64,000 nucleotides of DNA from contig JBDKGB010000027.1 in NCBI GenBank assembly GCA_039798485.1, forward strand, positions 1,240 through 65,239, read 5' to 3'. Origin of the DNA: Bacteroidota bacterium. GTDB lineage: Bacteria > Bacteroidota > Bacteroidia > Flavobacteriales_D > Crocinitomicaceae. Positions 3,216 through 39,031 of this stretch are shown here, in pieces. Numbering within the stretch: position 1 is the stretch's first letter; each line of letters begins with the position of its first letter. The position numbers and the translations under genes are program-made. Below the pieces are notes generated by a model. That model searched no databases and was not told the origin of the DNA. It was given only the letters and a program-made list of their open reading frames with translations.

Positions 3216-4130
3216 TCATTGCTGATCGAACAACGTTGTCCTCATGTTTTTCCACTTGTAAATTTTCGCAAAGGCCAAAAGCAACAAGGGTTGAAGTACA
3301 AGCATTGTCGCAATCACATCCCACCCAAATGTTGGTTTGGCATGGTCAATCCAAAGTGCATCTGTTTGAAAAGCCTGCCACTCGTTGGTTAAAATGAGTG
3401 CTGCAAAAATGTTGTTTGCCGCATGGTAGCCCATCGAAAGTTCGAGACCATCATCCATCAGCACCATCAATCCGAGAAAAATGCCTGTTATAATGTAATA
3501 GCTCATCACTCCATAGCCCAGCGTTTGAACCTCTGGATTTGCTGCGTGCATGAGGCCAAAAAGCACCCCTGTGACAAGAACTGTGATCCAACCTCGACGA
3601 TTTTTGTGACCAAAGGCTTGAAACAAATAACCTCTAAAGAGTGCTTCTTCAGCAGTCGTTTGAATTGGGATGAGCAGTAATGAAATCAATATAAGCGGTA
3701 AAATCGTCGACGGATTCATGTTCCATTGAATTTGGTCATTGTCCACCATCATCAGACCAAGCAAAAGTGCCATCACGCCAGTCCAAATTCCCGCTGAAAA
3801 GAAAAATCTCTTCCAATCGAATTGCGAACGTGCAGTGAATAGTGACAAGATGCTTCGCTTGTGTATGAAGCGGTTACACAGCATAAGCGTCAAAAGGACC
3901 AAAACAAAAGGAAAAAGTAGGTAACCAAGGATGGTGTTTTCACCTAAGCGTGCTGTCCAATCCGACATGTTTCCAGACAAGGCTCCCTCACCACCTCCGT
4001 TGGCTATCGATAGGTGCACAAGCAATGGAATGGAACCAAGAATTGCATAACACAACACAACAATGCACAAGGTCAATATGTACCCTGAAATGCGGTTATT
4101 GCCTTGATCAGCGTTGGTTAAAAATGACAT
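3216..4130 (-). CDS. CPBP family intramembrane metalloprotease (CAAX protease-like)
   Basis: Polytopic membrane protein carrying the CPBP motifs EEALFRG, FGLMHAANP and HAANN. Confidence 0.8.
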   Translation of the reverse strand: MSFLTNADQGNNRISGYILTLCIVVLCYAILGSIPLLVHLSIANGGGEGALSGNMSDWTARLGENTILGYLLFPFVLVLLTLMLCNRFIHKRSILSLFTARSQFDWKRFFFSAGIWTGVMALLLGLMMVDNDQIQWNMNPSTILPLILISLLLIPIQTTAEEALFRGYLFQAFGHKNRRGWITVLVTGVLFGLMHAANPEVQTLGYGVMSYYIITGIFLGLMVLMDDGLELSMGYHAANNIFAALILTNEWQAFQTDALWIDHAKPTFGWDVIATMLVLQPLLLLAFAKIYKWKNMRTTLFDQQ

Positions 4131-5981: not shown

Positions 5982-7448
5982 TTGAAAGTTCTAAAACCCA
6001 TACATGTACTCCTATTTACCCTTGGTGTGTTGCTCCTGTTATCACCCATTGTCATTTTTATTCCTGAAGGAGGATGGAACATTTTCGGCTACAAATTGCA
6101 GTTCATGTCCAAAACAGAGTTCTTTCACCCAATAAAACAAGAGAAGAAGGACATCTCCAAACTTGTCGCAAAAGTTGATACTTCTGGAATTGAAGACCCT
6201 TTGCTTCAGCATAAAAACGGATCCGATGGATCTTTCGGGGCTCCGAATGGCGGTGAACTTTCGACAGAATCGAGTACCTCCATTGCACTCAACGATGCAG
6301 GGCTTCAAAACCTTCACAGCTTCTTCACGAAATTGCAAAATGCTTCTACAGACAAAAAGAAGATCCATATTTTTCACTACGGTGATTCCCAAATTGAAGG
6401 AGACCGCATGACAGCCTATATTCGTCAGCGTATTCAAAATCAATTTGGTGGTACAGGACCAGGATTAATTCCTGCTATGAATGTGTATGCAACAAACACC
6501 TTCAAGCAGAGCCTTTCTGCCAACTTTGTTCGATACACCTGCTTTGGAGGAGATAAATTGAAAAACAAAAAATATGGTGCTTTGGGTTCCGCCGCGCGAT
6601 TTACTGCCGAAATGGATAGCTCGGGCATGAAAAATAAGACATCCATCGAAGAAGGTTGGATTGAGATTGAACCCAACAAGTCTGCCTATTCAAGAGCAAA
6701 AGAATACAACAATGTGAAGATGTTCTATACCAGTTGCTTGAAACCATGTGGACTAAAAGTGTATCAGAATGGCAATCTTATTCACGAGGATAGTTTGAAA
6801 ACAGACGGCAAATTGCACAGTGTCGATCTTTCTTTTGCAGCGACACCCGGAAAGTTAAAATATGTGTTTTCGGCGTCTGTCAGTCCGACGATATGTGGAT
6901 TTTCTCTAGAAGGAGACTATGGTGTTCAAGTCAACAATGTGGGGATGCGTGGTTCTAGTGGAACAATCTACGGGTACATGGACCAAGGGATTACTTCACA
7001 AATGTATGGGGACTTAAATACAGAATTGATCATCATGCAATTTGGAGGGAATTCTGTTCCCTCATTTAAAGACTCGAGTTCGGTGCGAAATTTCACCCGA
7101 AATTTTAAGGGACAGTTGAATACCATTCATAAGTTACGTCCCTCTGCAGCAATCATCGTTATTGGCCCGAGCGATATGTCGCGACTTGAAAAAGGTGTCT
7201 ATGAAACCTACCCCCTTCTTCCCTACTGTGTCGAACAGATGAAAAAAATCAGCCTTGAGGTTGGTGCAGGCTATTGGGATTTGTTCAGTGCCATGGGCGG
7301 TAAAAATTCAATGCCTTCATGGGTTGAACAAGGTCTCGCAGGCAAGGATTACATCCATTTCAGCAATGGTGGGGCAAGCTATGCCTCACAAATGTTCTTC
7401 GATGCATTTGCAGCTGAATTTGCAAAATGGCAAAAGGGAAAGAAATAA
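5982..7448 (+). CDS. SGNH/GDSL hydrolase family protein (membrane-anchored)
   Basis: ORF 5721..7448 contains HIFHYGDSQIEGD (a GDS block) and a late DYIHFS (DxxH-like) block. The 5' 260 nt overlap grpE antisense, so I trimmed the start to the in-frame TTG at 5982, which precedes an N-terminal hydrophobic helix (KVLKPIHVLLFTLGVLLLLSPIVIF). The start is uncertain. Confidence 0.65.
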   Translation: MKVLKPIHVLLFTLGVLLLLSPIVIFIPEGGWNIFGYKLQFMSKTEFFHPIKQEKKDISKLVAKVDTSGIEDPLLQHKNGSDGSFGAPNGGELSTESSTSIALNDAGLQNLHSFFTKLQNASTDKKKIHIFHYGDSQIEGDRMTAYIRQRIQNQFGGTGPGLIPAMNVYATNTFKQSLSANFVRYTCFGGDKLKNKKYGALGSAARFTAEMDSSGMKNKTSIEEGWIEIEPNKSAYSRAKEYNNVKMFYTSCLKPCGLKVYQNGNLIHEDSLKTDGKLHSVDLSFAATPGKLKYVFSASVSPTICGFSLEGDYGVQVNNVGMRGSSGTIYGYMDQGITSQMYGDLNTELIIMQFGGNSVPSFKDSSSVRNFTRNFKGQLNTIHKLRPSAAIIVIGPSDMSRLEKGVYETYPLLPYCVEQMKKISLEVGAGYWDLFSAMGGKNSMPSWVEQGLAGKDYIHFSNGGASYASQMFFDAFAAEFAKWQKGKK

Positions 7449-8767: not shown

Positions 8768-10432
8768 ATGGAACGACTGTGGCAAATATTCTCCTTCAAT
8801 GAAAAAGAACCTCTGATATTCACACAGTTGGACTTTTGGCTTTTCTTTTTGGCGGTGATGATCATCTTCTCTATGATTCACAAGCATTTCTTGGTGCGAA
8901 GTATTTTCCTAACGGCAGTTTCCATTTTCTTTTATTTCAAGACCTCTGGATTGTTTGTTATTCTTTTGTGCATTAGTTTAGTTGGGAATTACTTTTTCGG
9001 AAAATGGGTGCACGACGCTCAACGGGAGCGCTCAAAGAAGTGGATCATAGGTATAGGGGCCTTTCTCAATCTTGCCGTCCTCGCCTACTTCAAGTATTCC
9101 TACTTCTTCACCGATTCGTTCAACGAGATGTTTCACACCGACTTCAAGGTGTTCAACCATTTGGCCTACATGGGAAATAGCTTCTTTGGCGAAGGCAGTT
9201 TTAATGTCGATAAAATCGTACTTCCTGTTGGCGTTTCCTTCTTTACTTTTCAGAGCATTTCCTATTTCATTGACATCTACCGAAAGGAGATTGAGCCTGT
9301 AAAGAATTTCTTTGATTACACCTTCTTCGTCACATACTTCCCACAACTTGTCGCTGGACCTATCGTTCGAGCGCGCGATTTCATCCCACAGATTCGTCAG
9401 CCCTTTGCGCTTGATAAAGATGCATTCAGCTGGTCAATCATACAGATTGTGAAGGGTTTACTTAAGAAGATTGTACTTGCGGATTACATTGCTGTGCATT
9501 TCATTGATAAAATTGTGGATGCACCTGAAGCCTATCCTGGATTTGTGAGTGTTTTGGCCATGTGGGGTTATTCGCTTCAGATTTACGGCGATTTTTCTGG
9601 ATACACTGATATAGCGATTGGACTTTCCCGATTGATGGGCTTCAATCTGCTTGAAAATTTCCGGTCACCGTACAAGGCCGTTAGCGTGGCAGATTTTTGG
9701 AGAAGATGGCACAAATCTTTGGGTTCATGGCTCCGCGATTATTTGTACATTCCATTGGGAGGTAACAAGACAGGAGGATTTGGCACCTACATCGCCACAG
9801 CCATCATTTTTGTGTTTTTAATCTTCATCACGCAATGGTACGAGTTGATCTATGTTTATCTCGGATTGACTGTGGTGTATATATTGGGCGTCTTGTTTAT
9901 TCCAAACTTCAAGCAGTATGTTCACCGGGACTTAAACCTCTTGATCACCATGGTAGTGGGTGGCTTGTGGCACGGTGCCAGTGAGAATTTTGTGATTTGG
10001 GGAGCGATGAATGGAGCCGCTTTGGTGATCTACAACTATTGGCGTAAAATTTCACCATATGAAAATTCAACATGGTTGGTGGTTCATTTTTGGAAAGTGT
10101 TCCTCACCTTCAACTTCATCACGTTCACGCGAATTTGGTTCCGCTTTGAAGATGAAGGCGCACCGATGGCCATGATCAACCACGTTTGGAATCATTTTGA
10201 CTTTACCTTGGAAACATTTGGACTGGTACTTTGGACTTATCAGAGCGTGTTCTGGGTTATTCTATTTGGGTTCATCGTACATTGGCTGCCTGACAATATT
10301 AAATTGATGTGGGAGAAATTGTTCAGCCGATCACCGATGCCTGTTCAAGCCATGGCGGTAGCGATCATCGTTGTCCTCATGTACCAAGCAGTGTCGGATA
10401 CCTTTAAGCCTTTCGTATATTTCCAGTTTTAG
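8768..10432 (+). CDS. MBOAT family O-acyltransferase (AlgI/PatA/DltB-like)
   Basis: Polytopic membrane protein with FWRRWHKSLGSWLRDYLYIPLGGN and the GGLWHGAS histidine motif typical of MBOAT. Confidence 0.85.
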   Translation: MERLWQIFSFNEKEPLIFTQLDFWLFFLAVMIIFSMIHKHFLVRSIFLTAVSIFFYFKTSGLFVILLCISLVGNYFFGKWVHDAQRERSKKWIIGIGAFLNLAVLAYFKYSYFFTDSFNEMFHTDFKVFNHLAYMGNSFFGEGSFNVDKIVLPVGVSFFTFQSISYFIDIYRKEIEPVKNFFDYTFFVTYFPQLVAGPIVRARDFIPQIRQPFALDKDAFSWSIIQIVKGLLKKIVLADYIAVHFIDKIVDAPEAYPGFVSVLAMWGYSLQIYGDFSGYTDIAIGLSRLMGFNLLENFRSPYKAVSVADFWRRWHKSLGSWLRDYLYIPLGGNKTGGFGTYIATAIIFVFLIFITQWYELIYVYLGLTVVYILGVLFIPNFKQYVHRDLNLLITMVVGGLWHGASENFVIWGAMNGAALVIYNYWRKISPYENSTWLVVHFWKVFLTFNFITFTRIWFRFEDEGAPMAMINHVWNHFDFTLETFGLVLWTYQSVFWVILFGFIVHWLPDNIKLMWEKLFSRSPMPVQAMAVAIIVVLMYQAVSDTFKPFVYFQF

Positions 10433-12297
10433 ACCGCATCAACATCTGAAGCAGCAATGTGCTCAGCGAAGAACACCATTTTGGCACTAAACCCTTCGTT
10501 GGCAGCAGATTTGAACTCTAACTTTCCTTTGAAAGAGAAGGTACGTTCTTCGATGCTATTCAAACCAACACCTTTTCGTAAGCGCTTGGCCTCTACACCT
10601 TGGCCATTGTCTTGATAAAATGCGTTGAATTTACCATCGGCAATAGAAATGCCTAAACGCGCTTCAGAAGCATTCGCATATTTCAACGTGTTGTTGGTTA
10701 ATTCTTGAGCGATGCGGTAAAAGTTGATGCTGAATCCGGCATCGAGCATGAGTTCTTCTGGTGCTTCGAGAATAAAGCGCACGCCATCTTGAGAATTGTT
10801 GAGTTTATCAAAATAGGAACGCAAGCTTGCGCTAAGGCCAGATATTTTTAATTCTGAAGGGTACAAATCTCTGCAGATGCGACGTAAGTCGTCAATGGCA
10901 GTTTTCGTTGTGTCCGACAAGAGCACCAAGTTTGAATTGGACGGATCTTTTTCCGCCTCATGGCCAAGCAACAAGTTCATTACCGTAAGTGTGCCGCCCA
11001 TGCTGTCGTGAAGCTCGCGGGACACACGTAATTTTTCATTTTCTGCCGATTGCAAGGCCGCACGATTGAGCGCAGCTTTTCGTTCCCGTTTCTCTTTTTT
11101 CCGTCGTGCATTAATCAAGAAATAAGCAAAAATGCTGAGAGATATAAAGGACACAAGTATGATGTAAATCCAGTTTTGCAAACGCAGGTTACTCACTTCC
11201 GTGCGTTTCTTGGAGAGTTTTAGGTCATTGATCAGTTTTGTTCTTTTGAGATCGTCATAGCGTTCTTGACTCTCGATAACAGCTTCACTCTGTTCGGCGT
11301 TGAGTCGCTTTAGCACTTGTTGGGCATATTTCGCATAATAGTCGCGACTCAACCGGTACTTACCTTCATGGTAGTAATAATCACTGAGGGAGAGATTCAG
11401 TTCTGGCATCATTTCATAGCCAACGAGTTCATTGGCATACAGCGCAATTGCTTTGTCTAAATACTCCTTGGCTTTGTCCCACTCTTCAGTTTCAATGAAT
11501 ATGGCTGCTAGATTGTTGTAAGATGAGACCGTACCTTCAAAATCGCCTTTAGACAAGAAAATTGTTGAACATTGTAAAAAGTACTCTTTCGCTTTCTGAT
11601 ATTCTTTGAGCGCCAAATACGCTGCAGCAATATTATTCAGGACATTCCCTAACTTTTCGTAATCCGTAGGATGAATGTACTTTAGGGACTTTTGATACAG
11701 TTGAATCGCTCTGAGCACATTGTTTCGGTTACCTTTCCCGTAAGCGATGGTACCTTGACCATTCAGCGCAGATGAGATAAGTGAAGAATCTTTCAGTCCT
11801 AAAGCTGATCTGTATGTTTTTGAAAAATAGCGCATTGCATAGGATGTATTTCCCAGATACTTATGCGCATTCCCTAACATTAGAAAAGCCTTTGCTTCCG
11901 TTTCTTGATCTCTCTCCTTGATTAAAATTAGTTTGTGTAAAACAGCAACAGCTGATTCCATGTCTTCTCTCAAATAATGAACAATCGCTATTTCAAGAAG
12001 AATTTGAGCTCTGTATTTATCCGCACCATCTTTCGAGAGCGCTTTTTTTCCATACTCCAGGGCCGAAGCATATCGAGCATTTAGACGCAAAGATTTCATT
12101 TTCAACGCATCGAACTCACAAAGCTCTTCACATACATTCGAGTAACAGGTCTCCTCGAAACGATAAATCAATTGACTGGCATCATCATTTTGCTCAAAAG
12201 CTGCTTCCATTTTTAGAAGCAGCTGATCACATGAGCTTTGACTTAAACAAATTTGAGTTAAGCAAAGAAATAAAATGATTGAGGCAATTCTTTTCAA
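10429..12297 (-). CDS. TPR-repeat sensor histidine kinase (HisKA_3 / HATPase_c)
   Basis: Signal peptide, about 350 aa of TPR-like repeats, one TM helix (IYIILVSFISLSIFAYFLI), the H-box RVSRELHDSMGG, and C-terminal N/G boxes. Confidence 0.8.
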   Translation of the reverse strand: MKRIASIILFLCLTQICLSQSSCDQLLLKMEAAFEQNDDASQLIYRFEETCYSNVCEELCEFDALKMKSLRLNARYASALEYGKKALSKDGADKYRAQILLEIAIVHYLREDMESAVAVLHKLILIKERDQETEAKAFLMLGNAHKYLGNTSYAMRYFSKTYRSALGLKDSSLISSALNGQGTIAYGKGNRNNVLRAIQLYQKSLKYIHPTDYEKLGNVLNNIAAAYLALKEYQKAKEYFLQCSTIFLSKGDFEGTVSSYNNLAAIFIETEEWDKAKEYLDKAIALYANELVGYEMMPELNLSLSDYYYHEGKYRLSRDYYAKYAQQVLKRLNAEQSEAVIESQERYDDLKRTKLINDLKLSKKRTEVSNLRLQNWIYIILVSFISLSIFAYFLINARRKKEKRERKAALNRAALQSAENEKLRVSRELHDSMGGTLTVMNLLLGHEAEKDPSNSNLVLLSDTTKTAIDDLRRICRDLYPSELKISGLSASLRSYFDKLNNSQDGVRFILEAPEELMLDAGFSINFYRIAQELTNNTLKYANASEARLGISIADGKFNAFYQDNGQGVEAKRLRKGVGLNSIEERTFSFKGKLEFKSAANEGFSAKMVFFAEHIAASDVDAV

Positions 12298-19637: not shown

Positions 19638-20630
19638 CTAAACAAAAATAAACTCTTCTTCGTGACTGCTAATGTAGTCGAGCAATTCCATGACTTCATT
19701 CAAATCGGTTGATGTTACCAGTTTCATTCTGAATTCCTTGAAATGTGAAATCCCCTTAAAATAATTGGTGTAATGGCGCTTCATTTCTGCAATGCCCAAC
19801 ACTTCACCTTTCCAGTTCACTGACATTTGAAGGTGATCACGCGCTGCCTCTACGCGTTCTTTCAAACCAGGCGCTGCCATATGCGTACCTGTGGCCATAA
19901 AATGTTTTATTTCATTAAAGATCCACGGATATCCAATACTCGCACGACCTATCATGATGCCATCAACACCATAGCGCTGACGGTATTCTACGGCTTTTTC
20001 TGGTGTGTCAATGTCTCCGTTTCCAAACACTGGAATGCGCATGCGTTGGTTGTTCTTGACCTCTCCAATTAATGTCCAATCCGCATCGCCCTTGTACATT
20101 TGCTTGCGTGTACGACCGTGAATGGAAATGGCTTCTATACCAATGTCTTGCAAGCGTTCAGCGGTTTCTACAATGTACTTGGTGTCATCGTCCCATCCAA
20201 GTCGTGTTTTCACGGTGACAGGAAGGTTGGTGGCTTTCACAATTTCCTGAGTCATGCGCACCATCTTTGGGATGTCTTGCAAAATTCCCGCTCCTGCGCC
20301 CTTGCACGCCACCTTCTTTACCGGACACCCATAGTTGATGTCGATGATGTCGGGATTGACCTTTTCAATGATCTCAGCGGCTTGCTTCATGCTCTCGATT
20401 TCCGATCCAAAGATTTGAATCCCCACCGGCCGCTCGTATTCAAAAATATCCAATTTCTGAACACTCTTTGCGGCGTCACGAATGAGTCCTTCGGAGGAGA
20501 TAAATTCCGTGTACATCAAGTCGGCACCATTTTTCTTGCACAGCGCACGAAATGGCGGATCACTTACATCCTCCATTGGCGCAAGCAGCAATGGGAATTC
20601 CCCCAATTCGATGTTACGGATTTTTACCAC
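19638..20630 (-). CDS. dusB: tRNA-dihydrouridine synthase B
   Basis: LAPMEDVSDPPFR, INYGCPVKKV and the TIM-barrel Dus motifs. GTG start at 20630. Confidence 0.9.
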   Translation of the reverse strand: MVKIRNIELGEFPLLLAPMEDVSDPPFRALCKKNGADLMYTEFISSEGLIRDAAKSVQKLDIFEYERPVGIQIFGSEIESMKQAAEIIEKVNPDIIDINYGCPVKKVACKGAGAGILQDIPKMVRMTQEIVKATNLPVTVKTRLGWDDDTKYIVETAERLQDIGIEAISIHGRTRKQMYKGDADWTLIGEVKNNQRMRIPVFGNGDIDTPEKAVEYRQRYGVDGIMIGRASIGYPWIFNEIKHFMATGTHMAAPGLKERVEAARDHLQMSVNWKGEVLGIAEMKRHYTNYFKGISHFKEFRMKLVTSTDLNEVMELLDYISSHEEEFIFV

Positions 20631-20651
20631 GGTGCAAAGATAGTGAGGATA

Positions 20652-20715
20652 TTAAGATGTTAAGACATCAAGATTTTAAGATGTTAAGACAAAAGACGCG
20701 TCAGCCGCGGCTGAC
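20652..20715. promoter_or_regulatory. dusB upstream region: 16-bp direct repeat TTAAGATGTTAAGACA x2 (20652..20667, 20676..20691) plus a 16-nt perfect palindrome GTCAGCCGCGGCTGAC (20700..20715)
   Basis: Read directly from the sequence. It lies 20-85 nt upstream of the dusB start on the minus strand. Function unknown. Confidence 0.25.
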
Positions 20716-20835
20716 TGAAATACAAAGGACAAGAGACAAAAGACAAAAGACAAGAGTCTCAACCATACTTCGGGGGCTCCACCTCGGCGGACAAGTGAGG
20801 TTATGCAATTGGAGACAAACGACATAAGGACTAAA

Positions 20836-21045
20836 GCAAAAAAGGAGCACTTGATGTGCTCCTTTTTGTTACCTAACCTAAACCTAACTAAAACTACTGC
20901 TGTCTATGAAATCCGGGAACCACCCCGGTTGTTTTATGAATCAAAGATAGGTTCAGAATTTATGGTTGAACAGGAAAAAGGATTCGAATCAATATACTTT
21001 CAGTAGATGTTTCTAGTGCCACTACGTAGAACTACGTAGTGGCAA
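20836..21045 (-). repeat. Structured ~200 bp repeat element, copy A (candidate sRNA or leader; minus-sense end is an intrinsic terminator)
   Basis: Shares conserved blocks with copies B and C: a terminator hairpin (GGAGCAC-TTGAT-GTGCTCC flanked by A and T runs, 20838..20867), a CTAACCTAA/CTAAAACTACTGCT block, a GGGAACCACCCCG hairpin, TGTTTTATGA(A/T)TCAAAGATA, TACTTTCAGTA, and an ACTACGTAG palindrome. Confidence 0.6.
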
Positions 21046-21072
21046 GTATTCTAGGTGGTTTCAGCAGAAAAA

Positions 21073-22041
21073 TCAGAAGTTTGAAACAAGTTTTTTGGAA
21101 TGTTCATCCCATAGTTTTAGAGACAAACATCGACGGATTTCATTCAGTTTCAAGGAAGTCGTTTTGGGATGCTGCACTGCTGGAACATCGCGCATAACTT
21201 CAGGAAGACGATAAAATGGAATTCTTGCATTGAGGTGATGAATGTGGTGATAACCTATGTTCCCTGTGAACCAATGCATGATTCGATTGGTGTTCATATA
21301 ACTGGATGATTCCAAAGCGGCATCGATGTAATTCCAATGTGTGTCGGGCTTATAACTCGCACTTGGAAAATTGTGCTGGGCATAGAACAGATAAGCACCC
21401 AAACCACCAGAGATAAAATGTGGAATCAATGTAAAAAAGATACTTGTTGTCCAACCGAAATTGAGAAAAATCAAGGTATGTAAAGTGAAAAAAAAGGGCA
21501 ACGCGAAAATGGCCTCTCTGTTTTTTGATAAACTGACCAGCAAAGGATGGATGCACATGCCGATGAGAAACGAGAAGATGAAACCATTGAAGATGACAAG
21601 TGGATGACGAACAAACATGTACTGCCTCTTTTGTTTTTTAGAGAGTTCATTGAAACGTGCAATTGTGAACATTGGATACGATCCAATACCGGATTTAAAC
21701 AACTTTGAATTGTGGTCGTGGTGGTAGTTGTGAGATCGACGCCAAACAGTTTTTGGACACAATACATAATACCCGAAAACGGTAAAAAGAAAGTTTGCAG
21801 GTTTACTATCATTTAGGATTGCGTGATGCAAATAATCGTGGTAAATGACAAACATGCGCACAATGAGAAGTCCACAAAGTATGCTTAGCAGTAGTTGAAT
21901 TCCCCAAAATAGTTGGAGCGTCAAGATATATAAATTGGCAATAAACAATACAAATGTTGAGAGTGTAAGCCACCAACTTTTCAAGCGGTTTTCGTGCGCA
22001 TACTTCGCGGTAATGGCCAACAGATCTTCCGTCTTTTTCAT
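21073..22041 (-). CDS. Membrane fatty acid desaturase family protein
   Basis: Three histidine boxes: HDYLHH, HNYHHDH and HHIHHLN. Confidence 0.85.
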   Translation of the reverse strand: MKKTEDLLAITAKYAHENRLKSWWLTLSTFVLFIANLYILTLQLFWGIQLLLSILCGLLIVRMFVIYHDYLHHAILNDSKPANFLFTVFGYYVLCPKTVWRRSHNYHHDHNSKLFKSGIGSYPMFTIARFNELSKKQKRQYMFVRHPLVIFNGFIFSFLIGMCIHPLLVSLSKNREAIFALPFFFTLHTLIFLNFGWTTSIFFTLIPHFISGGLGAYLFYAQHNFPSASYKPDTHWNYIDAALESSSYMNTNRIMHWFTGNIGYHHIHHLNARIPFYRLPEVMRDVPAVQHPKTTSLKLNEIRRCLSLKLWDEHSKKLVSNF

Positions 22042-23123
22042 AGTGTGGAATACGCGCGTTTTGAGTTATTTCTAAGCAAGCGGAAATGCGAAATCACAGC
22101 CGAAATCAGGTACTTTTCACTTCGATATGGATAATTGTATTTCTTCGATATTTCCACCAAAATCTTCGTCAAAGCAGGATAATGAATGTGGCATATGTGT
22201 GGACACAAATGATGGATAACATGGAAATTAAAGCCTCCAAAAAGCGTAATGATCAAGGGATTCGATTTTCCAAAATCTGATGCCGTGAGCACTTGGTGAT
22301 AGGACCAGCTATGAGGCAAGACGTTCTCAGCATTCGGCTCTGGAAATTGTGCATCTTCACCAACATGTGTACTTAACAAGACAAAGGTGATGAACAAGCT
22401 ACCCACCACGGTGAGAAGGAAAAATGCGGAAAAGGCAAAAAGCCAACTTACTTGCAGCACCAATACTGGTAGCACAATCATCTGAACGAGATAAAACAAC
22501 TTAAAAATCACCATCTTCACGACCTCCTTCCTAGGATAGTTGCGATTGTCAAATACACCTATTCGTTTCGAAACAGCATCTTTAAAATCTCGATAAATGA
22601 CCCATCTAAAAATGTAAAGCATATACACCAATGGCATATACAGGTGTTGAAATCGGTGATATGCACGATGCTTATCTTTAGGGAAAATTTTAACAACACT
22701 AGTCTGCTGAATATCAGAATCATAATCCATGATGTTGGGAAACACATGGTGCGCGCCTAAATGCCGATTGACCCAGTTGAATGAATTTGTTCCAAGAAGG
22801 TCAAACACCAATAAAAGTCTTTGATTGTCTTTTCGACGTTTGAAAATGGCATTGTGAGCGGCATCATGCCCAATATTAAGTCCCAGAAAAACGGACCATG
22901 CCCCAAGGAAAGCATAGATCAAATAGAGATAAAAGTGATTTCCCCCAACGAAATAAATGCACAGATAGCCAAAAATGTAAATTAGCGCCATCAACACAAG
23001 TTTGATTTTCATCGCATGATTGGCGTAATAGGTTAGATTGTTGGATTTGAAATAATCATCTATCCGCTCTTTTAATTCGTTTAAGAAGTTCGAATTCTCT
23101 GGGGAGAAGGCTAGTTTTTCCAT
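22038..23123 (-). CDS. Membrane fatty acid desaturase family protein (second, front-end-like)
   Basis: Histidine boxes HDAAHN, HLGAHH and HVIHHLCPH. Its stop overlaps the downstream desaturase start by 4 nt. Confidence 0.85.
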   Translation of the reverse strand: MEKLAFSPENSNFLNELKERIDDYFKSNNLTYYANHAMKIKLVLMALIYIFGYLCIYFVGGNHFYLYLIYAFLGAWSVFLGLNIGHDAAHNAIFKRRKDNQRLLLVFDLLGTNSFNWVNRHLGAHHVFPNIMDYDSDIQQTSVVKIFPKDKHRAYHRFQHLYMPLVYMLYIFRWVIYRDFKDAVSKRIGVFDNRNYPRKEVVKMVIFKLFYLVQMIVLPVLVLQVSWLFAFSAFFLLTVVGSLFITFVLLSTHVGEDAQFPEPNAENVLPHSWSYHQVLTASDFGKSNPLIITLFGGFNFHVIHHLCPHICHIHYPALTKILVEISKKYNYPYRSEKYLISAVISHFRLLRNNSKRAYSTL

Positions 23124-23722
23124 TATACTGCGTTGCTATTTGAATTCGGTTCACGCTTGAAAAACCAAACAGTTAAATCGGTATATGGATGTTTCATTTC
23201 AGCATATTCAACATATCCACTCGTCTGGTACAATTTGCGAACGCGAGGGACGGTCGTTTCAATGAAAATGCACAAATTGCTTTGGTCACTTGTTTGAAAC
23301 ATTTTGTGTTTGATTTCAAATGCTGTTTTCGCAGTTCGTTGGTTCTTGTCTGTCGCAACAAGCAATCCTAACCAGCCATTTTCAGTGCGCAGAGCTGCAA
23401 CCTTTTTTTGGTATCGAATGGCTTTTACACCATTCCGAATTCCTGTGACAAACAACAAAACATAGAGTTTCAAAAAAAATAGCCGCAACGAAACTGCTTT
23501 TTGGCTCACCTGAAAAAATAACAAAGCCCCATTGCGATCTGAAGTAATGTACGCCCCCTGCTTTTCTTGAGACTCAAAAAAGAGAAGGCGAATGATCCAT
23601 TTTCGCTGTTTCAAGCTATCAGGATTCTTCACCATCCAATATACACCGAGCGATTCGACAAAAGCATCTTCCAAGATTTCAATTGCTCGTGTTTCGTCTT
23701 CCCGTGTTTGAACTACTTTCAT
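23123..23722 (-). CDS. GNAT-like N-acetyltransferase (putative)
   Basis: 199 aa with a GNAT-like C-terminal pattern (IFIETTVPRVRKLYQTSGYVEYAEM). Overlaps the next gene by 1 nt, which suggests an operon. Confidence 0.5.
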   Translation of the reverse strand: MKVVQTREDETRAIEILEDAFVESLGVYWMVKNPDSLKQRKWIIRLLFFESQEKQGAYITSDRNGALLFFQVSQKAVSLRLFFLKLYVLLFVTGIRNGVKAIRYQKKVAALRTENGWLGLLVATDKNQRTAKTAFEIKHKMFQTSDQSNLCIFIETTVPRVRKLYQTSGYVEYAEMKHPYTDLTVWFFKREPNSNSNAV

Positions 23723-23821
23723 TACAGTATTTTAAGCAGTCAAAAATGAGCTATTTTTTGCGTTTCACATTACTGATTTCCACCAACACAAAAACTTCAC
23801 TTGCGAATTCCGCAACTAAAA

Positions 23822-24022
23822 ACAAAAAAGGAGCACTCGTTTGCGCTCCTTTTTTACTACCTAACCTAACTAACTAAAACTACTGCTATGAAAAACGGGA
23901 ACCACCCCGTTGTTTTATGATTCAAAGATAGGGTGAGATCTGCGGGGTCGGTCATTGTATTGCCACTGGGCAATGTACTTTCAGTACTCCCCGGTAGTTG
24001 AACTACGTAGTTCTACTTAGTT
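23822..24022 (-). repeat. Structured ~200 bp repeat element, copy B
   Basis: Same block order as copy A. Terminator hairpin at 23824..23856, and 100 nt upstream (minus sense) of the GNAT start. Confidence 0.6.
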
Positions 24023-24135
24023 CACTAATCCTTTCATTAAATGAAGAAAATGAGGCAAGTTTGCCTTCCATCATCTCGATGTCAAATTCCTGATCTTAGC
24101 ATTTAAAATAGCATCTGAAGACTCAATTGCACAAA

Positions 24136-24340
24136 CTAAAAAAGGAGCACTCGTTTGCGCTCCTTTTTTACTACCTAAACCTAACTAAAACTAAACTACT
24201 GCTATGAAAAACGGGAACCACCCCGTCTGTTTTATGATTCAAAGATACGGTGAGGTCTGAGCATGCAATCCTATTTATGCATCAACGTCATGTACTTTCA
24301 GTACTCACCTGTAGGAGAACTACGTAGTTCTACCTAGTAG
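24136..24340 (-). repeat. Structured ~200 bp repeat element, copy C (tandem with B)
   Basis: Same block order. Terminator hairpin at 24138..24170. The element begins just after the phnA terminator. Confidence 0.6.
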
Positions 24341-24352
24341 ATGTTATTCAGC

Positions 24353-24388
24353 AAAAAAAAGAAGCGATAAAATCTCTTTTACCGCTTC
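24353..24388 (-). terminator. Rho-independent terminator of phnA
   Basis: The minus strand reads GAAGCG-(16 nt loop)-CGCTTC followed by T8, 57 nt after the phnA stop. Confidence 0.55.
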
Positions 24389-24444
24389 ACGTATACTTCA
24401 TTATTTTCTTCCGAGAAAATGCAATTTCACACTAATTTCATGGA

Positions 24445-25014
24445 TTACTTTTTCACATACTGTGTTAAGATCACGATACCCTGTCCATTGATTTTTCCTT
24501 CAATTTGCTCAGGATTGTCTTGTACCAAACGAATGTTACGTACGGACGTTCCACGTTTTGCCGTAAACCCAGCTCCTTTTACTTCAAGGTCCTTGATCAA
24601 TACAATCGTATCACCATTCTCTAAAATGGTTCCATTGCTATCTACATGATGCACAGCTGCTTCAACTTCACGGTGATCACCAGATGCTTGAGCCCAAGTC
24701 AAGGTCTCGTCATCCATGTACATCATGTCAATTAAATCTTGTGACCAACCTTCAGACTTAATGCGGTGAAGCATTCGCCAAGAAATTACTTGAACCGCTG
24801 GTACTTCGCTCCACATGCTCTCTGTTAAACAGCGCCAATGGTTTGAATCCATCGTATTTTGTGTTATCTGCTCAACACACGTCGAACAGGCATGCACGTG
24901 CTGATCTGGATTTGTACTATTACCCGGTTCTACAAGAAAAGCTATCAAGCCATCCGTGCCACCGCACAATTCACAAATCCCATTGCTGCGCGAACGCAAT
25001 TGCTCCTCTACCAT
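24445..25014 (-). CDS. phnA: PhnA family zinc-ribbon protein
   Basis: N-terminal CELCGG...CSTC zinc ribbon and the conserved C-terminal domain DSNGTILENGDTIVLIKDLEVKG...IRLV...IEGKI. Confidence 0.85.
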   Translation of the reverse strand: MVEEQLRSRSNGICELCGGTDGLIAFLVEPGNSTNPDQHVHACSTCVEQITQNTMDSNHWRCLTESMWSEVPAVQVISWRMLHRIKSEGWSQDLIDMMYMDDETLTWAQASGDHREVEAAVHHVDSNGTILENGDTIVLIKDLEVKGAGFTAKRGTSVRNIRLVQDNPEQIEGKINGQGIVILTQYVKK

Positions 25015-34072: not shown

Positions 34073-34146
34073 AAGCATAGTGATTTGAAATCACAATTTC
34101 AAAAGTCTGTATATTGAATGCAGGCTTTTTTTTATGCTTCTTGAGC

Positions 34147-34915
34147 CTACCACGGAGGCACGGGACTATTGTTTTTCATTTAAAATTCAACTGGATTCTT
34201 TCGCCTTGCACGTCAATTCTCTGCGCCTCTAGGTGAATAAACCAAATAATTATCTACTACAGAGGCACAGAGATCAATTGTATCTGAAATTCAACTGGAT
34301 TCTTACGCCTTGCACGTTCATTCTCTGCGCCTCTAGGTGAATAAACAAGATTATTGTCTACCACGGAGGCAAAGAGATCAATTGTATCTGAAATTCAACT
34401 GGATTCTTAAGCCTTGCACGTTCATTCTCTGCGACTCTAGGTGAATAAACCAAATAATTGTCTACCACGGAGGCAAAGAGATCAATTGTATCTGAAATTC
34501 AACTGGATTCTTTCGCCTTGCACGTTCATTCTCTGCGACTCTAGGTGAATAAACCAAATAATTGTCTACCACAGAGGCACAGAGATCAATTGTATCTGAA
34601 ATTCAATTGGATTCTTAAGCCTTGCACGTTCATTCTCTGCGCCTCTAGGTGAATAAACAAGATTATTGTCTACCACGAAGGCAAAGAAATCAATTGTATC
34701 TGAAATTCAACTGGATTCTTCCGCCTTGTACGTTCATTCTCTGCGCCTCTAGATTAATAAACCAGATTATTGTCTGCCACGGAGGCACAGAGATCAATCG
34801 TATCTGCAATTCAACTGGATTCTTCCGCCTTGCACGTTAATTCTCTGCGCCTCAAGGTGAATAAACAAGATTATTGTCTACTAGAAAGGCACAGAGGTTA
34901 ATTGTATCTCAAATA
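34147..34915. repeat. Non-coding tandem repeat, 104-bp unit, about 7.4 copies
   Basis: Unit starts (CTACCACGGAGGCA...) are at 34147, 34254, 34358, 34462, 34566, 34670, 34774 and 34878. Units are about 90% identical over their full length. A 104-nt period is not a multiple of 3. Confidence 0.9.
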
Positions 34916-35003
34916 CATTTCAGCTAGTTTCCATACTACATCTTTCATGTTATCAGCATGCAATGAGACGAAGGAGCTAAAAAATTCTTGGTCGAAATTC
35001 TTC

Positions 35004-37292: not shown

Positions 37293-38432
37293 ATGCATTT
37301 TATACCTTCATTCGAGTCTTCCGCATTTTTATATGTGTTCCTAACATTTGGAATTACAGCTTTGGTGCATCTGACGTATGTGCTTCTCATCCAAGGAAAA
37401 TTCGCCTTTTACAAGCAGAAAACTCCAACCGAGAACGAAGCCTCTTTTCCTCCAATATCGCTGATTATTGCAGCGCGAAACGAATCAGACAATCTGTACG
37501 AAAACCTCCCATTCATCTTAACCCAAGACTACCCTCAGTTTGAAGTGATTGTCATCAACAACCAATCGGTAGACGATTCCAGTCAACTTTTGCGGGCGTT
37601 TCAAAATGAATACAGAAATCTCCATGTCATCGAAGTAGAGCGAAACCCACACCTCCGGCCTGGCAAGAAACTCTCCATCACTATCGGGATCAAGGGAGCA
37701 AAATACGACCATTTCATTTTGACAGATGCGGATTGTCGTCCAGCTTCTCGGTTGTGGTTGCAGTCGATGGCAAAATCCTTTCGTGCTGATAAAGAGCTCA
37801 TCATTGGCTACGGTCCTTACACCAAAACGTCAGGTTTTTTAAATCGCCTGATTCGCTTCGACACCGCTTCCATTGGCATCAGTTATTATTCCATGGCCTT
37901 GTCGGGTTTGCCCTACATGGGAGTAGGACGCAACATTGGTTATACCAGGAAACTTTTCGATTCTGTGAATGGATTCAAATCACATTATGGTTTAGCTTCT
38001 GGCGATGACGATCTTTTTGTACAAGAAGCAGCAACAAAAAAGAATGTCTCGATCAATATTGATAAAGATGCCTTTTGTTACTCTGCCCCTTGCAGTGACT
38101 GGGATGCGTGGATTCGACAAAAAACCAGACACTACACGACTACCGATCGGTACGAGGTTATTAAAAAATGGATGTTAGGAATATATCCCTTGACCCTGCT
38201 GATCTTGCTTATTTCCTTTGTTATTTTGATGCTGAGTAATGATTTCCGATGGTTAAGTGCCTCGGTATTCATTTTCGTTACGGGTGTTAAATGGTGGGTA
38301 CAAGGCCGTTGTTTCATTAAATTGAACGAAGGCAGCTTGGTGAAATACCTACCATTGTGGGACATGATGTACACGATCTTGATGCCGATCATTTATTATT
38401 CATCTGAAAAAAAGGCAGCAAACAAATGGTAG
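37293..38432 (+). CDS. Family 2 glycosyltransferase (membrane)
   Basis: ISLIIAARNE..., VIVINNQSVDDS, LTDADC, and C-terminal TM helices. Confidence 0.75.
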   Translation: MHFIPSFESSAFLYVFLTFGITALVHLTYVLLIQGKFAFYKQKTPTENEASFPPISLIIAARNESDNLYENLPFILTQDYPQFEVIVINNQSVDDSSQLLRAFQNEYRNLHVIEVERNPHLRPGKKLSITIGIKGAKYDHFILTDADCRPASRLWLQSMAKSFRADKELIIGYGPYTKTSGFLNRLIRFDTASIGISYYSMALSGLPYMGVGRNIGYTRKLFDSVNGFKSHYGLASGDDDLFVQEAATKKNVSINIDKDAFCYSAPCSDWDAWIRQKTRHYTTTDRYEVIKKWMLGIYPLTLLILLISFVILMLSNDFRWLSASVFIFVTGVKWWVQGRCFIKLNEGSLVKYLPLWDMMYTILMPIIYYSSEKKAANKW

Positions 38433-39031
38433 AAGGCGAACACTTATCCGACAAAGCACGACACGATCTCATTCTGGTAGATGCGGCGCGGAAAGGCAAT
38501 CAAGCAGCATACGCTGAGTTGATGGACCGTTATCGAGAATCAATCTATTACATGATGCTCAAAATGGTGAAAAACCAAGATGATGCTGATGATTTAACGA
38601 TCGAAGCCTTTGGCAAAGCATTTAGCCGCTTGGAACAATACTCTCCAAGTTATGCCTTCAGTACTTGGCTGTTTAAAATCGCTTCCAACAATTGTATTGA
38701 TTTCATTCGCAAAAAACGAATCAAAGTGACCTCCATGGATACTGGCTTTACCTCAAGCGATGGTGAAGTGGTTTACATTGAAGCAAAAGCTTCGGTCATG
38801 AATCCCGAAGAAACAATTATTCACGGTCAAAAAGTGTCGCACATGCGTGTTCTTGTGAGCAAGCTGAAGCCACGCTACCGCGAACTTGTGGAGAAACGTT
38901 ATTTTGAGGAATTGAGTTACGAAGAGATCGCTGAAGAGTTGAATCTGCCGTTGGGGACCGTTAAAGCTCAACTTTTTCGCGCCAGAGACTTCCTTGCTGG
39001 AATGATGGAGAAAACCAAAGACACGATTTAA
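38426..39031 (+). CDS. RNA polymerase sigma-70 family (ECF-type) sigma factor
   Basis: Region 2 (DADDLTIEAF...FSTWLFKIASNNCIDFIRKK) and region 4 (ELSYEEIAEELNLPLGTVKAQLFRAR). Confidence 0.85.
   Translation: MVEGEHLSDKARHDLILVDAARKGNQAAYAELMDRYRESIYYMMLKMVKNQDDADDLTIEAFGKAFSRLEQYSPSYAFSTWLFKIASNNCIDFIRKKRIKVTSMDTGFTSSDGEVVYIEAKASVMNPEETIIHGQKVSHMRVLVSKLKPRYRELVEKRYFEELSYEEIAEELNLPLGTVKAQLFRARDFLAGMMEKTKDTI

Follow-up and report, generated by a model that had tools for sequence, protein, structure and literature searches.

What does a DNA element of about 200 bp encode when it occurs three times in a short region of a Bacteroidota genome? The element was noticed in a stretch of 64,000 nucleotides from a Bacteroidota bacterium of the Crocinitomicaceae (assembly GCA_039798485.1, contig JBDKGB010000027.1, forward-strand positions 1,240 to 65,239), hereafter the window, and an initial annotation described it as a structured element with covariation, present as a tandem pair (copies B and C) and a further copy (A), and possibly representing a small RNA (sRNA) or a leader family. 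The feature is real and was rightly spotted, while its extent and nature were partly misread. Each unit is probably an sRNA gene of 95-100 nt, complete with a promoter and with control sites upstream of it. Three such genes lie in the window, and the family occurs only in a single group of freshwater Flavobacteriales that are uncultured; as part of the same reading, the RNAs would act in trans by base-pairing at start codons. The RNA family is new and restricted to this clade, its kind being already known.

All three copies are read from the minus strand (A 21039-20838, B 24020-23824, C 24337-24138) and share ordered conserved blocks, as is seen in the alignment and in the direct-repeat families D3-D5. 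The composite pattern TTTGA-N22-40-TTTCATAG-N0-4-CAGTAGTTT matches exactly these three sites in the window, where shuffles expect 0.00, and a covariance model retrieves the three copies at 104-111 bits (E ~1e-18) and no fourth one in a search of the window. Each unit closes, as had been reported, with a strong terminator-like hairpin and a T-run, the hairpin counting 16 pairs in copy B and all three copies having perfectly complementary arms of 11-12 nt. The RNA-like parts of the units are the following:

24138..24235, minus strand: predicted sRNA of copy C, 98 nt, from the deduced start A24235 to 24138, where the U-run ends (covariance-model hit 24138-24239, 104.5 bits)
24211..24226, minus strand: 5' hairpin of copy C, ACGGGG-UGGU-UCCCGU
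24138..24170, minus strand: intrinsic terminator of copy C (stem, loop, U6), identified by the fold and by the inverted repeat 24137-24148 / 24159-24170, 100% complementary
23824..23918, minus strand: predicted sRNA of copy B, 95 nt, its start deduced from TATCTTTG at 23930-23923 (covariance-model hit 23824-23922, 111 bits)
23895..23910, minus strand: 5' hairpin of copy B, ACGGGG-UGGU-UCCCGU
23824..23856, minus strand: intrinsic terminator of copy B, 16 pairs (23858-23821)
20838..20937, minus strand: predicted sRNA of copy A, 100 nt, with the CCGGGG..CCCGG hairpin variant and, in the alignments, an ACAG insertion in a single-stranded region (covariance-model hit 20838-20941, 109.3 bits)
20913..20928, minus strand: 5' hairpin of copy A, CCGGGG-UGGU-UCCCGG
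20838..20867, minus strand: intrinsic terminator of copy A, arms 20839-20850 / 20856-20867

Relatives were collected in three ways. A scan of species-representative genomes that left the hairpin free returned 28 stretches, of which 9 are true members, all from metagenome-assembled genomes (MAGs) of Flavobacteriales, the rest being chance matches in coding DNA; a scan of metagenomes that required the hairpin contributed six further loci with true copies; and together with syntenic loci fetched via PhnA this gave 18 distinct RNA-half sequences from 13 loci. Two of the MAGs searched yielded three copies each. As the genome and metagenome scans demanded exact seed or hairpin motifs, diverged members would have escaped them, and the invariance of the demanded motifs is partly a matter of construction.

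Across these sequences the consensus fold consists of a 5' hairpin of 6 bp and a terminator of 11 pairs, and the RNA halves fold at z-scores of -3.1 to -4.6. The closing pair of the hairpin, for which an exchange of A-U (copies B and C) for C-G (copy A) had been pointed out correctly, is AU in 9, UA in 4 and CG in 3 of the 18 distinct copies and unpaired in 2, and the terminator pairs interchange among GU, AU and GC; each predicted RNA ends in an intrinsic terminator with pair-preserving variation, as is typical of trans-encoded sRNAs. Counted on an alignment that was fitted to the structure, 99.0% of the cells are paired, versus 95.2% in shuffles (0 of 500 shuffles reach 99.0%), and 13 cells carry changes on both sides, with 4.0 expected; slid controls drop to 36-68% paired. 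The covariation claimed for the element is thus real, and of limited extent. The RNA strand is the minus strand, because the hairpin has an invariant G-U pair and the terminator frequent ones, all of which would turn into A-C mismatches if the plus strand were read. The stem and the loop CGGGGUGGUUCCCG are themselves invariant in all 18 distinct copies, and since the genome scan had left the hairpin free, this points to a constraint on the sequence itself.

No open reading frame (ORF) is conserved on either strand, again as in genes of trans-encoded sRNAs. The short ORFs inside the units had been said not to persist from copy to copy, and indeed their frames and stops differ on both strands: an ORF of 67 amino acids on the plus strand covers copy A only, and a plus-strand mini-ORF beginning with ATGAAA shifts its frame and stop between copies. 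In the antisense mini-ORF, the correlated changes at the closing pair would affect two codons at once, as fits pairing rather than a protein. Public gene calls place ORFs of 50-67 amino acids antisense over copy A (window 20803-21006, plus strand; L001 10009-10161 and L002 10009-10212 in related loci), and these are not conserved over B and C. They are most likely spurious, and the annotation of ORFs over copy A can be corrected accordingly.

How far, then, does the RNA extend? The element had been taken for one structured RNA of about 200 nt with a variable, hairpin-forming middle, and this would mean that the 5' blocks and the middle hairpin are transcribed together with the 3' half. Whole units do fold at z-scores of -3.4 to -4.8, and the 5' blocks are conserved across species. 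These low energies come, however, from the terminator, the 5' hairpin and the palindromes in the DNA, the middle alone folding at shuffle level (mean z -0.23 versus dinucleotide shuffles for the 46-nt spacers of 16 copies); the middle is of invariant length (46) and free in sequence, with no compensatory pattern. Only the 3' 95-100 nt are RNA-like, high conservation setting in at a TAnnTTTG box. This octamer corresponds to the -7 motif of sigma-A, the primary sigma factor in Bacteroidota (PMC7366714), and here it sits canonically in the middle of each unit, invariant in 16 of 16 aligned copies in the form TA(t/c)(c/a)TTTG. The promoter and upstream parts of the units, and the terminator that precedes them, are:

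24240..24247, minus strand: -7 promoter box TATCTTTG (TAnnTTTG) of copy C, assigned to -12..-5 after PMC9723704
24248..24293, minus strand: 46-bp spacer of copy C, variable in sequence and invariant in length
24294..24303, minus strand: upstream block TACTGAAAGT of copy C, at about -68..-59
24320..24337, minus strand: phased palindromic octamers CTAGGTAG-AA-CTACGTAG of copy C, at about -102..-85
23923..23930, minus strand: -7 box TATCTTTG of copy B
23977..23986, minus strand: upstream block TACTGAAAGT of copy B
24003..24020, minus strand: octamers CTAAGTAG-AA-CTACGTAG of copy B
20942..20949, minus strand: -7 box TATCTTTG of copy A
20996..21005, minus strand: upstream block TACTGAAAGT of copy A
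21017..21044, minus strand: octamers CTACGTAG-TT-CTACGTAG of copy A, here widened to a palindrome with 13-nt arms
24361..24388, minus strand: phnA terminator, directly upstream of copy C, with no space for a further promoter before the conserved upstream blocks

The first conserved block of copy C (24337) begins, as had been noted, about 24 nt past the phnA terminator (24388-24361), and therefore no separate promoter can precede the blocks of this copy. In the related copy L029_A, moreover, and also in L039, the -7 box and the RNA are kept next to an unrelated upstream sequence, the 5' half being entirely missing from L029_A, so that the RNA half appears as a separable module. A single transcript of 200 nt is thus very unlikely.

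A short RNA with its own promoter fits these data better. In the window, TAnnTTTG is 3.4-fold enriched in intergenic DNA (17 observed, 5 expected), and the same octamer TATCTTTG stands ahead of dus, tgt and a tRNA gene; matches to sigma-70-type promoters are fewer than expected in the region 20400-24600 (2 versus 10). In Flavobacterium psychrophilum the box sits at -12 to -5 (PMC9723704), and with the same placement transcription would start at A24235, A23918 and A20937, giving RNAs of 98, 95 and 100 nt. Each conserved RNA thus has directly upstream of it a promoter of its own, recognised by motif, as is expected for the gene of a trans-encoded sRNA.

The 5' half behaves like regulatory DNA of the promoter or operator type, as judged from its sequence pattern. 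The block TACTGAAAGT ends exactly 46 bp ahead of the -7 box in 15 of 15 copies, across a spacer whose sequence varies. The RNA part has a mean pairwise identity of 0.87 over all copies (0.90-0.96 within ortholog groups), whereas the spacer reaches 0.58 and the upstream blocks reach 0.71. Palindromic octamers of the form CTAnGTAG occur two or three times per unit, 10 bp from start to start, at about -102 to -75; the window contains 6 strand-matches, 0.2 being expected, and only at these units. The centres of the blocks lie at about -63.5 and -93.5 relative to the predicted start, that is, three helical turns apart. Because of this fixed spacing, the free spacer sequence, the palindromes and the lack of excess folding, we read the 5' half as binding sites for protein before a promoter, and a shared transcription factor may act on all copies through them. 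In about 150 kb of related DNA no site of the form CTAnGTAG-nn-CTACGTAG was found apart from the sRNA copies, and thus no other member of a regulon. In the D-type copies of related genomes (L009 ~6055-6065, L017, L028 ~3893-3903) the sequence TATCTTGT stands immediately upstream of the octamers. It fits the variant box TAnnTTGY, which belongs to an alternative promoter class in F. psychrophilum (PMC9723704), and could be either a chance match or another promoter, from which transcription would enter the blocks.

The spacing of 46 bp made us consider one further function for the upstream blocks, namely as targets of RNA-guided transcription by dCas12f-sigmaE, whose transcripts begin 45-48 bp downstream of the target-adjacent motif and whose RNAs, encoded beside rpoE-dcas12f, have the guide at their 3' end (PMC13472631). 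The coincidence of this number and the presence of a gene for an extracytoplasmic function (ECF) sigma factor at 38426-39031 are all that speaks for it, whereas the position -46 from the predicted start lies within the variable spacer, TACTGAAAGT is not preceded by a conserved G, the promoter box is a canonical one for sigma-A, nothing Cas12f-like adjoins the ECF sigma gene, and the 3' end of the RNA is a covarying terminator and not a guide. We rejected both a guide RNA and a target of this kind (PMC13472631), which we regard as wildly improbable.

Are the units leaders of the genes that follow them? On the minus strand the order is phnA (25014-24445), the phnA terminator, copy C, copy B, an ORF of 199 amino acids (ORF199), two fatty-acid desaturase genes, copy A and dus.

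23123-23722, minus strand: ORF199, first gene of the desaturase operon, with 75-79% identity among relatives versus 92-99% for the flanking housekeeping genes

Copies B and C thus lie upstream of the ORF199-desaturase operon and copy A upstream of dus, on the same strand throughout, which would suit a cis-acting leader or attenuator governing these genes by regulated read-through of the terminator. Yet the copies occupy three syntenic positions. C follows phnA (duplicated as C plus B in the window), A is placed between the desaturase genes and dus, and a further type, D, follows a DUF2779 gene in related genomes. Downstream, the D copies face a convergent tRNA gene and a CotH gene, and no sense-strand gene comes after them. 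A leader role is therefore excluded for the D copies. Moreover, ORF199 and dus have upstream signals of their own (the former a palindrome, TTGCGnAATTCGCAA, the latter the box TATCTTTG at 20642-20649), the terminator is strong (11-16 pairs, U6) with no conserved alternative pairing in the consensus fold, two leaders in tandem make little sense, and in one related locus (L038) two copies stay between phnA and dus without the desaturase operon. Of the two possibilities that the initial annotation had left, independent minus-strand units that would encode a non-coding RNA are supported and the attenuator or leader is contradicted; we give the latter very little credence.

The region L038 6211-7081 corresponds to 20630-24445 of the window, its flanking genes having 97-99% protein identity, and contains phnA, a C-type copy, an A-type copy and dus, with no ORF199-desaturase-desaturase operon. 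Presence of the operon is therefore polymorphic, with sRNA copies at its borders. In this locus the second copy is a mosaic, B-like in its upstream half and A-like in its RNA half, and suggests recombination between copies. In one sample (L004 3561-3900) phnA and ORF199 are separated by just one copy where the window has C and B in tandem, which makes the tandem duplication polymorphic as well. The copies appear to mediate gain or loss of a fatty-acid desaturase operon between strains.

Such a use as recombination substrates (a single copy between phnA and ORF199 in one strain, the operon absent between two copies in another) is what a non-functional or selfish repeat might show, comparable to a miniature inverted-repeat transposable element (MITE) or a repetitive extragenic palindrome (REP), the former having been named at the outset, together with the end of an insertion sequence (IS), as the identity that would overturn the RNA reading. 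The units might also be bidirectional terminators with binding sites and no dedicated RNA, since the hairpins are flanked by A-runs and T-runs and could stop transcription in both directions. Against this, no terminal inverted repeats flank the units, the same syntenic positions are used in different species rather than scattered ones, the RNA half is far more conserved than the neighbouring intergenic DNA while the adjoining ORF199 protein is only 75-79% identical, and the base-pair-preserving changes and G-U pairs are specific to one strand. BLAST searches of phage and plasmid collections gave no match, and viral contigs gave weak matches at chance level only (23.9 bits). A repeat or terminator of this sort is accordingly most improbable, and a MITE or IS end is rejected on the lack of flanking inverted repeats, the syntenic positions and the phage and plasmid searches. 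The family appears narrow and young, because a model search with the filters off recovered no copy from the phnA locus of the nearest genomes outside the clade (L051-L053), whose PhnA is ~72% identical. Among close relatives the MAGs bear the labels Cryomorphaceae, Crocinitomicaceae or Flavobacteriales, and freshwater samples are the source of most of them.

We therefore return to a family of sRNA genes as the favoured reading, and describe how such genes may work. The regulatory part of about 100 bp would comprise the CTAnGTAG octamers, the TACTGAAAGT block (-68..-59), the 46-bp spacer and the TAnnTTTG box of the housekeeping sigma factor, and a DNA-binding protein would control all copies through the shared upstream blocks. 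Transcription would begin 5 nt past the -7 box and stop at the intrinsic terminator, yielding a non-coding RNA of 95-100 nt made up of a short A-rich 5' leader, the invariant 5' stem-loop, an unstructured stretch free of C, and the terminator hairpin with its U-run. The C-free single-stranded stretch between hairpin and terminator reads UUUCAUAG(ACAG)CAGUAGUUUUAG followed by (UUAG/G)n, in which UUUCAUAG, CAGUAGU and UUAGUUAG are invariant, the ACAG insertion marks type A, and the number of UUAG/UUAGG units differs between copies. Its invariant portion would pair in trans with mRNAs at or near their start codons; this is plausible because UUUCAU complements AUGAAA, as in the Bacteroides sRNAs FopS, a multicopy family, and GibS. 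Sibling copies could supply dosage or a slightly different specificity (GUUUUUCAUAG in B and C, GGAUUUCAUAGACAG in A).

Comparison with known sRNAs places the family among a familiar kind. In the Rfam check of the whole window no family matches the element, as the initial annotation had anticipated, and at gathering thresholds only a tRNA is found. A permissive scan gives sub-threshold matches only, mostly driven by the terminator, and an alignment reaching past the terminator is obtained with GibS and FopS alone, across GUUUUUCAUAG.A.UAG.UUUA. Both have been shown experimentally to pair at start-codon regions and to block translation, and FopS, whose targets are start-codon regions of SusC-like mRNAs, is a paralogous family of 14 members with canonical promoters (PMC11697453; PMC7366714). 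Like FopS of Bacteroides thetaiotaomicron, the family described here has several sibling copies with canonical TAnnTTTG promoters for sigma-A (predicted here by motif), an intrinsic terminator and an unstructured seed rich in U, A and G, and the two seeds, GUUUUUCAUgGUAUUAGAUUUA in FopS and GUUUUUCAUAGCAGUAGUUUUA here, both hold the complement of AUGAAAAA. It differs in the length of the RNA (65-70 nt in FopS versus a predicted 95-100 nt), in the place of the seed (at the extreme 5' end in FopS, here about 26-28 nt past the predicted start and behind a leader and an invariant stem-loop), in having UUAGG repeats and conserved palindromic blocks upstream of the promoter, and in its host, a freshwater Flavobacteriales clade instead of Bacteroidaceae. 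With GibS it shares a long single-stranded 5' portion and an identical run of 11 nt, GUUUUUCAUAG, located inside the R1 seed that pairs across start codons (PMC7366714), whereas GibS is of about 145 nt, single-copy, equipped with a second seed R2 and transcribed from a non-canonical PM2 promoter. As these two models were chosen post hoc from 4227 families and nominal significance is reached in the B/C type alone, we keep the likeness as a resemblance and not as homology.

Sibling sRNAs under a shared regulator are known from the Qrr1-5 RNAs of Vibrio and from OmrA/B and PrrF1/2 of Proteobacteria. Those, too, are paralogs that hardly differ from one another and in part stand in tandem; every member has a promoter of its own with the same regulator sites upstream, a conserved seed and an intrinsic terminator. 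They have no sequence relation to the present family, which occurs in a phylum without Hfq. By their description, the Rfp sRNAs of F. psychrophilum, e.g., Rfp18, are similar in being independent Flavobacteriales sRNAs with sigma-A TAnnTTTG promoters and predicted base-pairing, while Rfp18 differs in that it reportedly pairs via its third stem-loop and not via an unstructured stretch (PMC9723704).

The RNA might alternatively exert its effect on a protein, and we regard this as a serious rival, if an unlikely one: a transcript of about 100 nt would titrate an RNA-binding protein (e.g., an RRM-type Rbp) as a sponge or decoy, via CGGGGUGGUUCCCG and UUAG/UUAGG, rather than pair with mRNA. The invariance of hairpin stem and loop, despite the free search pattern, fits recognition of sequence and not of shape alone, the varying number of UUAG/G units is easier to reconcile with multivalent protein binding than with a duplex of fixed length, and in Bacteroides both FopS and GibS bind RbpB (PMC11697453). 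Yet the most conserved single-stranded part (UUUCAUAG..CAGUAGUUUUAG) is non-repetitive and holds the anti-start-codon hexamer, and some copies have only 1-2 repeat units (L028_D).

Several observations weigh against sRNA genes that pair at start codons. A duplex scan of start regions in the window performed no better than shuffled seeds (minimum -16.1 versus a mean control minimum of -18.0 kcal/mol), and duplex scans of the window with a long seed returned only the antisense strands of the elements themselves. Matches at the start codons of ORF199 and of the second desaturase gene are not conserved in orthologs; for the latter gene this concerns both CTATGAAAAA at the start codon and AACTACTGCTA at +145. 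Because the variable number of UUAG/G units would break a long base-pairing, any fixed seed would measure about 20 nt at most. The resemblance to known sRNAs is slight: FopS (RF04319) scores 24.2 bits (E 1.4) in copy B only, at a gathering score of 56, and GibS (RF04182) 25.1 and 22.9 bits, at a gathering score of 115, with only the R1-like stretch aligned and nothing of R2, and in a shuffle test the likeness to FopS/GibS gave p ~0.002-0.008 for the B/C type, while the A and D types were not significant. The covariation, besides being drawn from a structure-fitted alignment, is thin: of the 17 pairs just 3 show changes on both sides, and 10, among them 5 of the 6 in the hairpin, never vary, which is explained by the young age and narrow range of the family. 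Finally, transcription of the copies and their start sites are deduced from motifs. A -33 motif is absent from the copies, which is normal in Flavobacteria (PMC7366714), and the need for an activator is not implied by it.

A more far-reaching version of the favoured reading, which we put forward tentatively and consider rather doubtful, sees the family as the counterpart, evolutionary or convergent, of FopS/GibS in free-living Flavobacteriales, in which a UUUUUCAUAG seed would mask start regions of the AUGAAAAA type and a shared transcription factor would act via the rigidly spaced palindromic sites. Starts of the AUGAAAAA type are typical of secreted and outer-membrane proteins that begin with Met-Lys-Lys. 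If this were true, sibling sRNAs directed against start codons would constitute a phylum-wide regulatory principle in the Hfq-less Bacteroidota. To our knowledge, environmental Bacteroidota lack Hfq and ProQ and their post-transcriptional control is almost wholly unstudied, and we know of no well-studied sRNAs of this phylum outside gut Bacteroides. A cleanly delimited family from abundant uncultured freshwater Flavobacteriales, with a readable promoter/operator layout and a seed like that of FopS/GibS, is thus a candidate for asking whether sRNAs that mask start codons are general in the phylum.

The surroundings of the copies are in keeping with a Bacteroidota genome, the window encoding DUF4290 and CHU_C (type IX secretion) proteins, and an identical phnA gene is found on a metagenome contig of the Joint Genome Institute (3300046786). 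ORF199 matched no family in Pfam or NCBIfam, and the second desaturase resembles the Delta5 desaturase DesA. About 60-75 nt upstream of the ORF199 start lies a palindrome, TTGCGGAATTCGCAA (window 23780-23800, minus strand), which orthologs keep as TTGCGnAATTCGCAA or TTGCGAATATCGCAA and which probably serves the ORF199-desaturase operon as its operator or promoter region. The interval from copy A to dus (window 20640-20800) contains unusual short repeats (TTAAGATGTTAAGACA twice, and others of the AAGACAA type) and a hairpin, GTCAGCCGCGGCTGAC. In the related locus L001 (~10180-11670) an insert of about 1.3 kb follows directly after the terminator of copy A, with ORFs of 162 and 136 amino acids, neither of which matches a family.

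Farther away, the ECF-type sigma factor gene mentioned above, on the plus strand, has a glycosyltransferase gene on one side and gidB on the other; neither an anti-sigma gene nor a Cas12f-like one was detected next to it. Between an ORF of 934 amino acids with collagen repeats and lptF/G, a unit of 104 nt is repeated in tandem about 7-9 times (window 34183-34914, the array extending over ~34074-34997; 90% matches, Tandem Repeats Finder score 1156). This array is non-coding, as its period is not a multiple of 3, and each unit carries the inverted repeat TCTCTGCGCCTC...GGAGGCACAGAGA.

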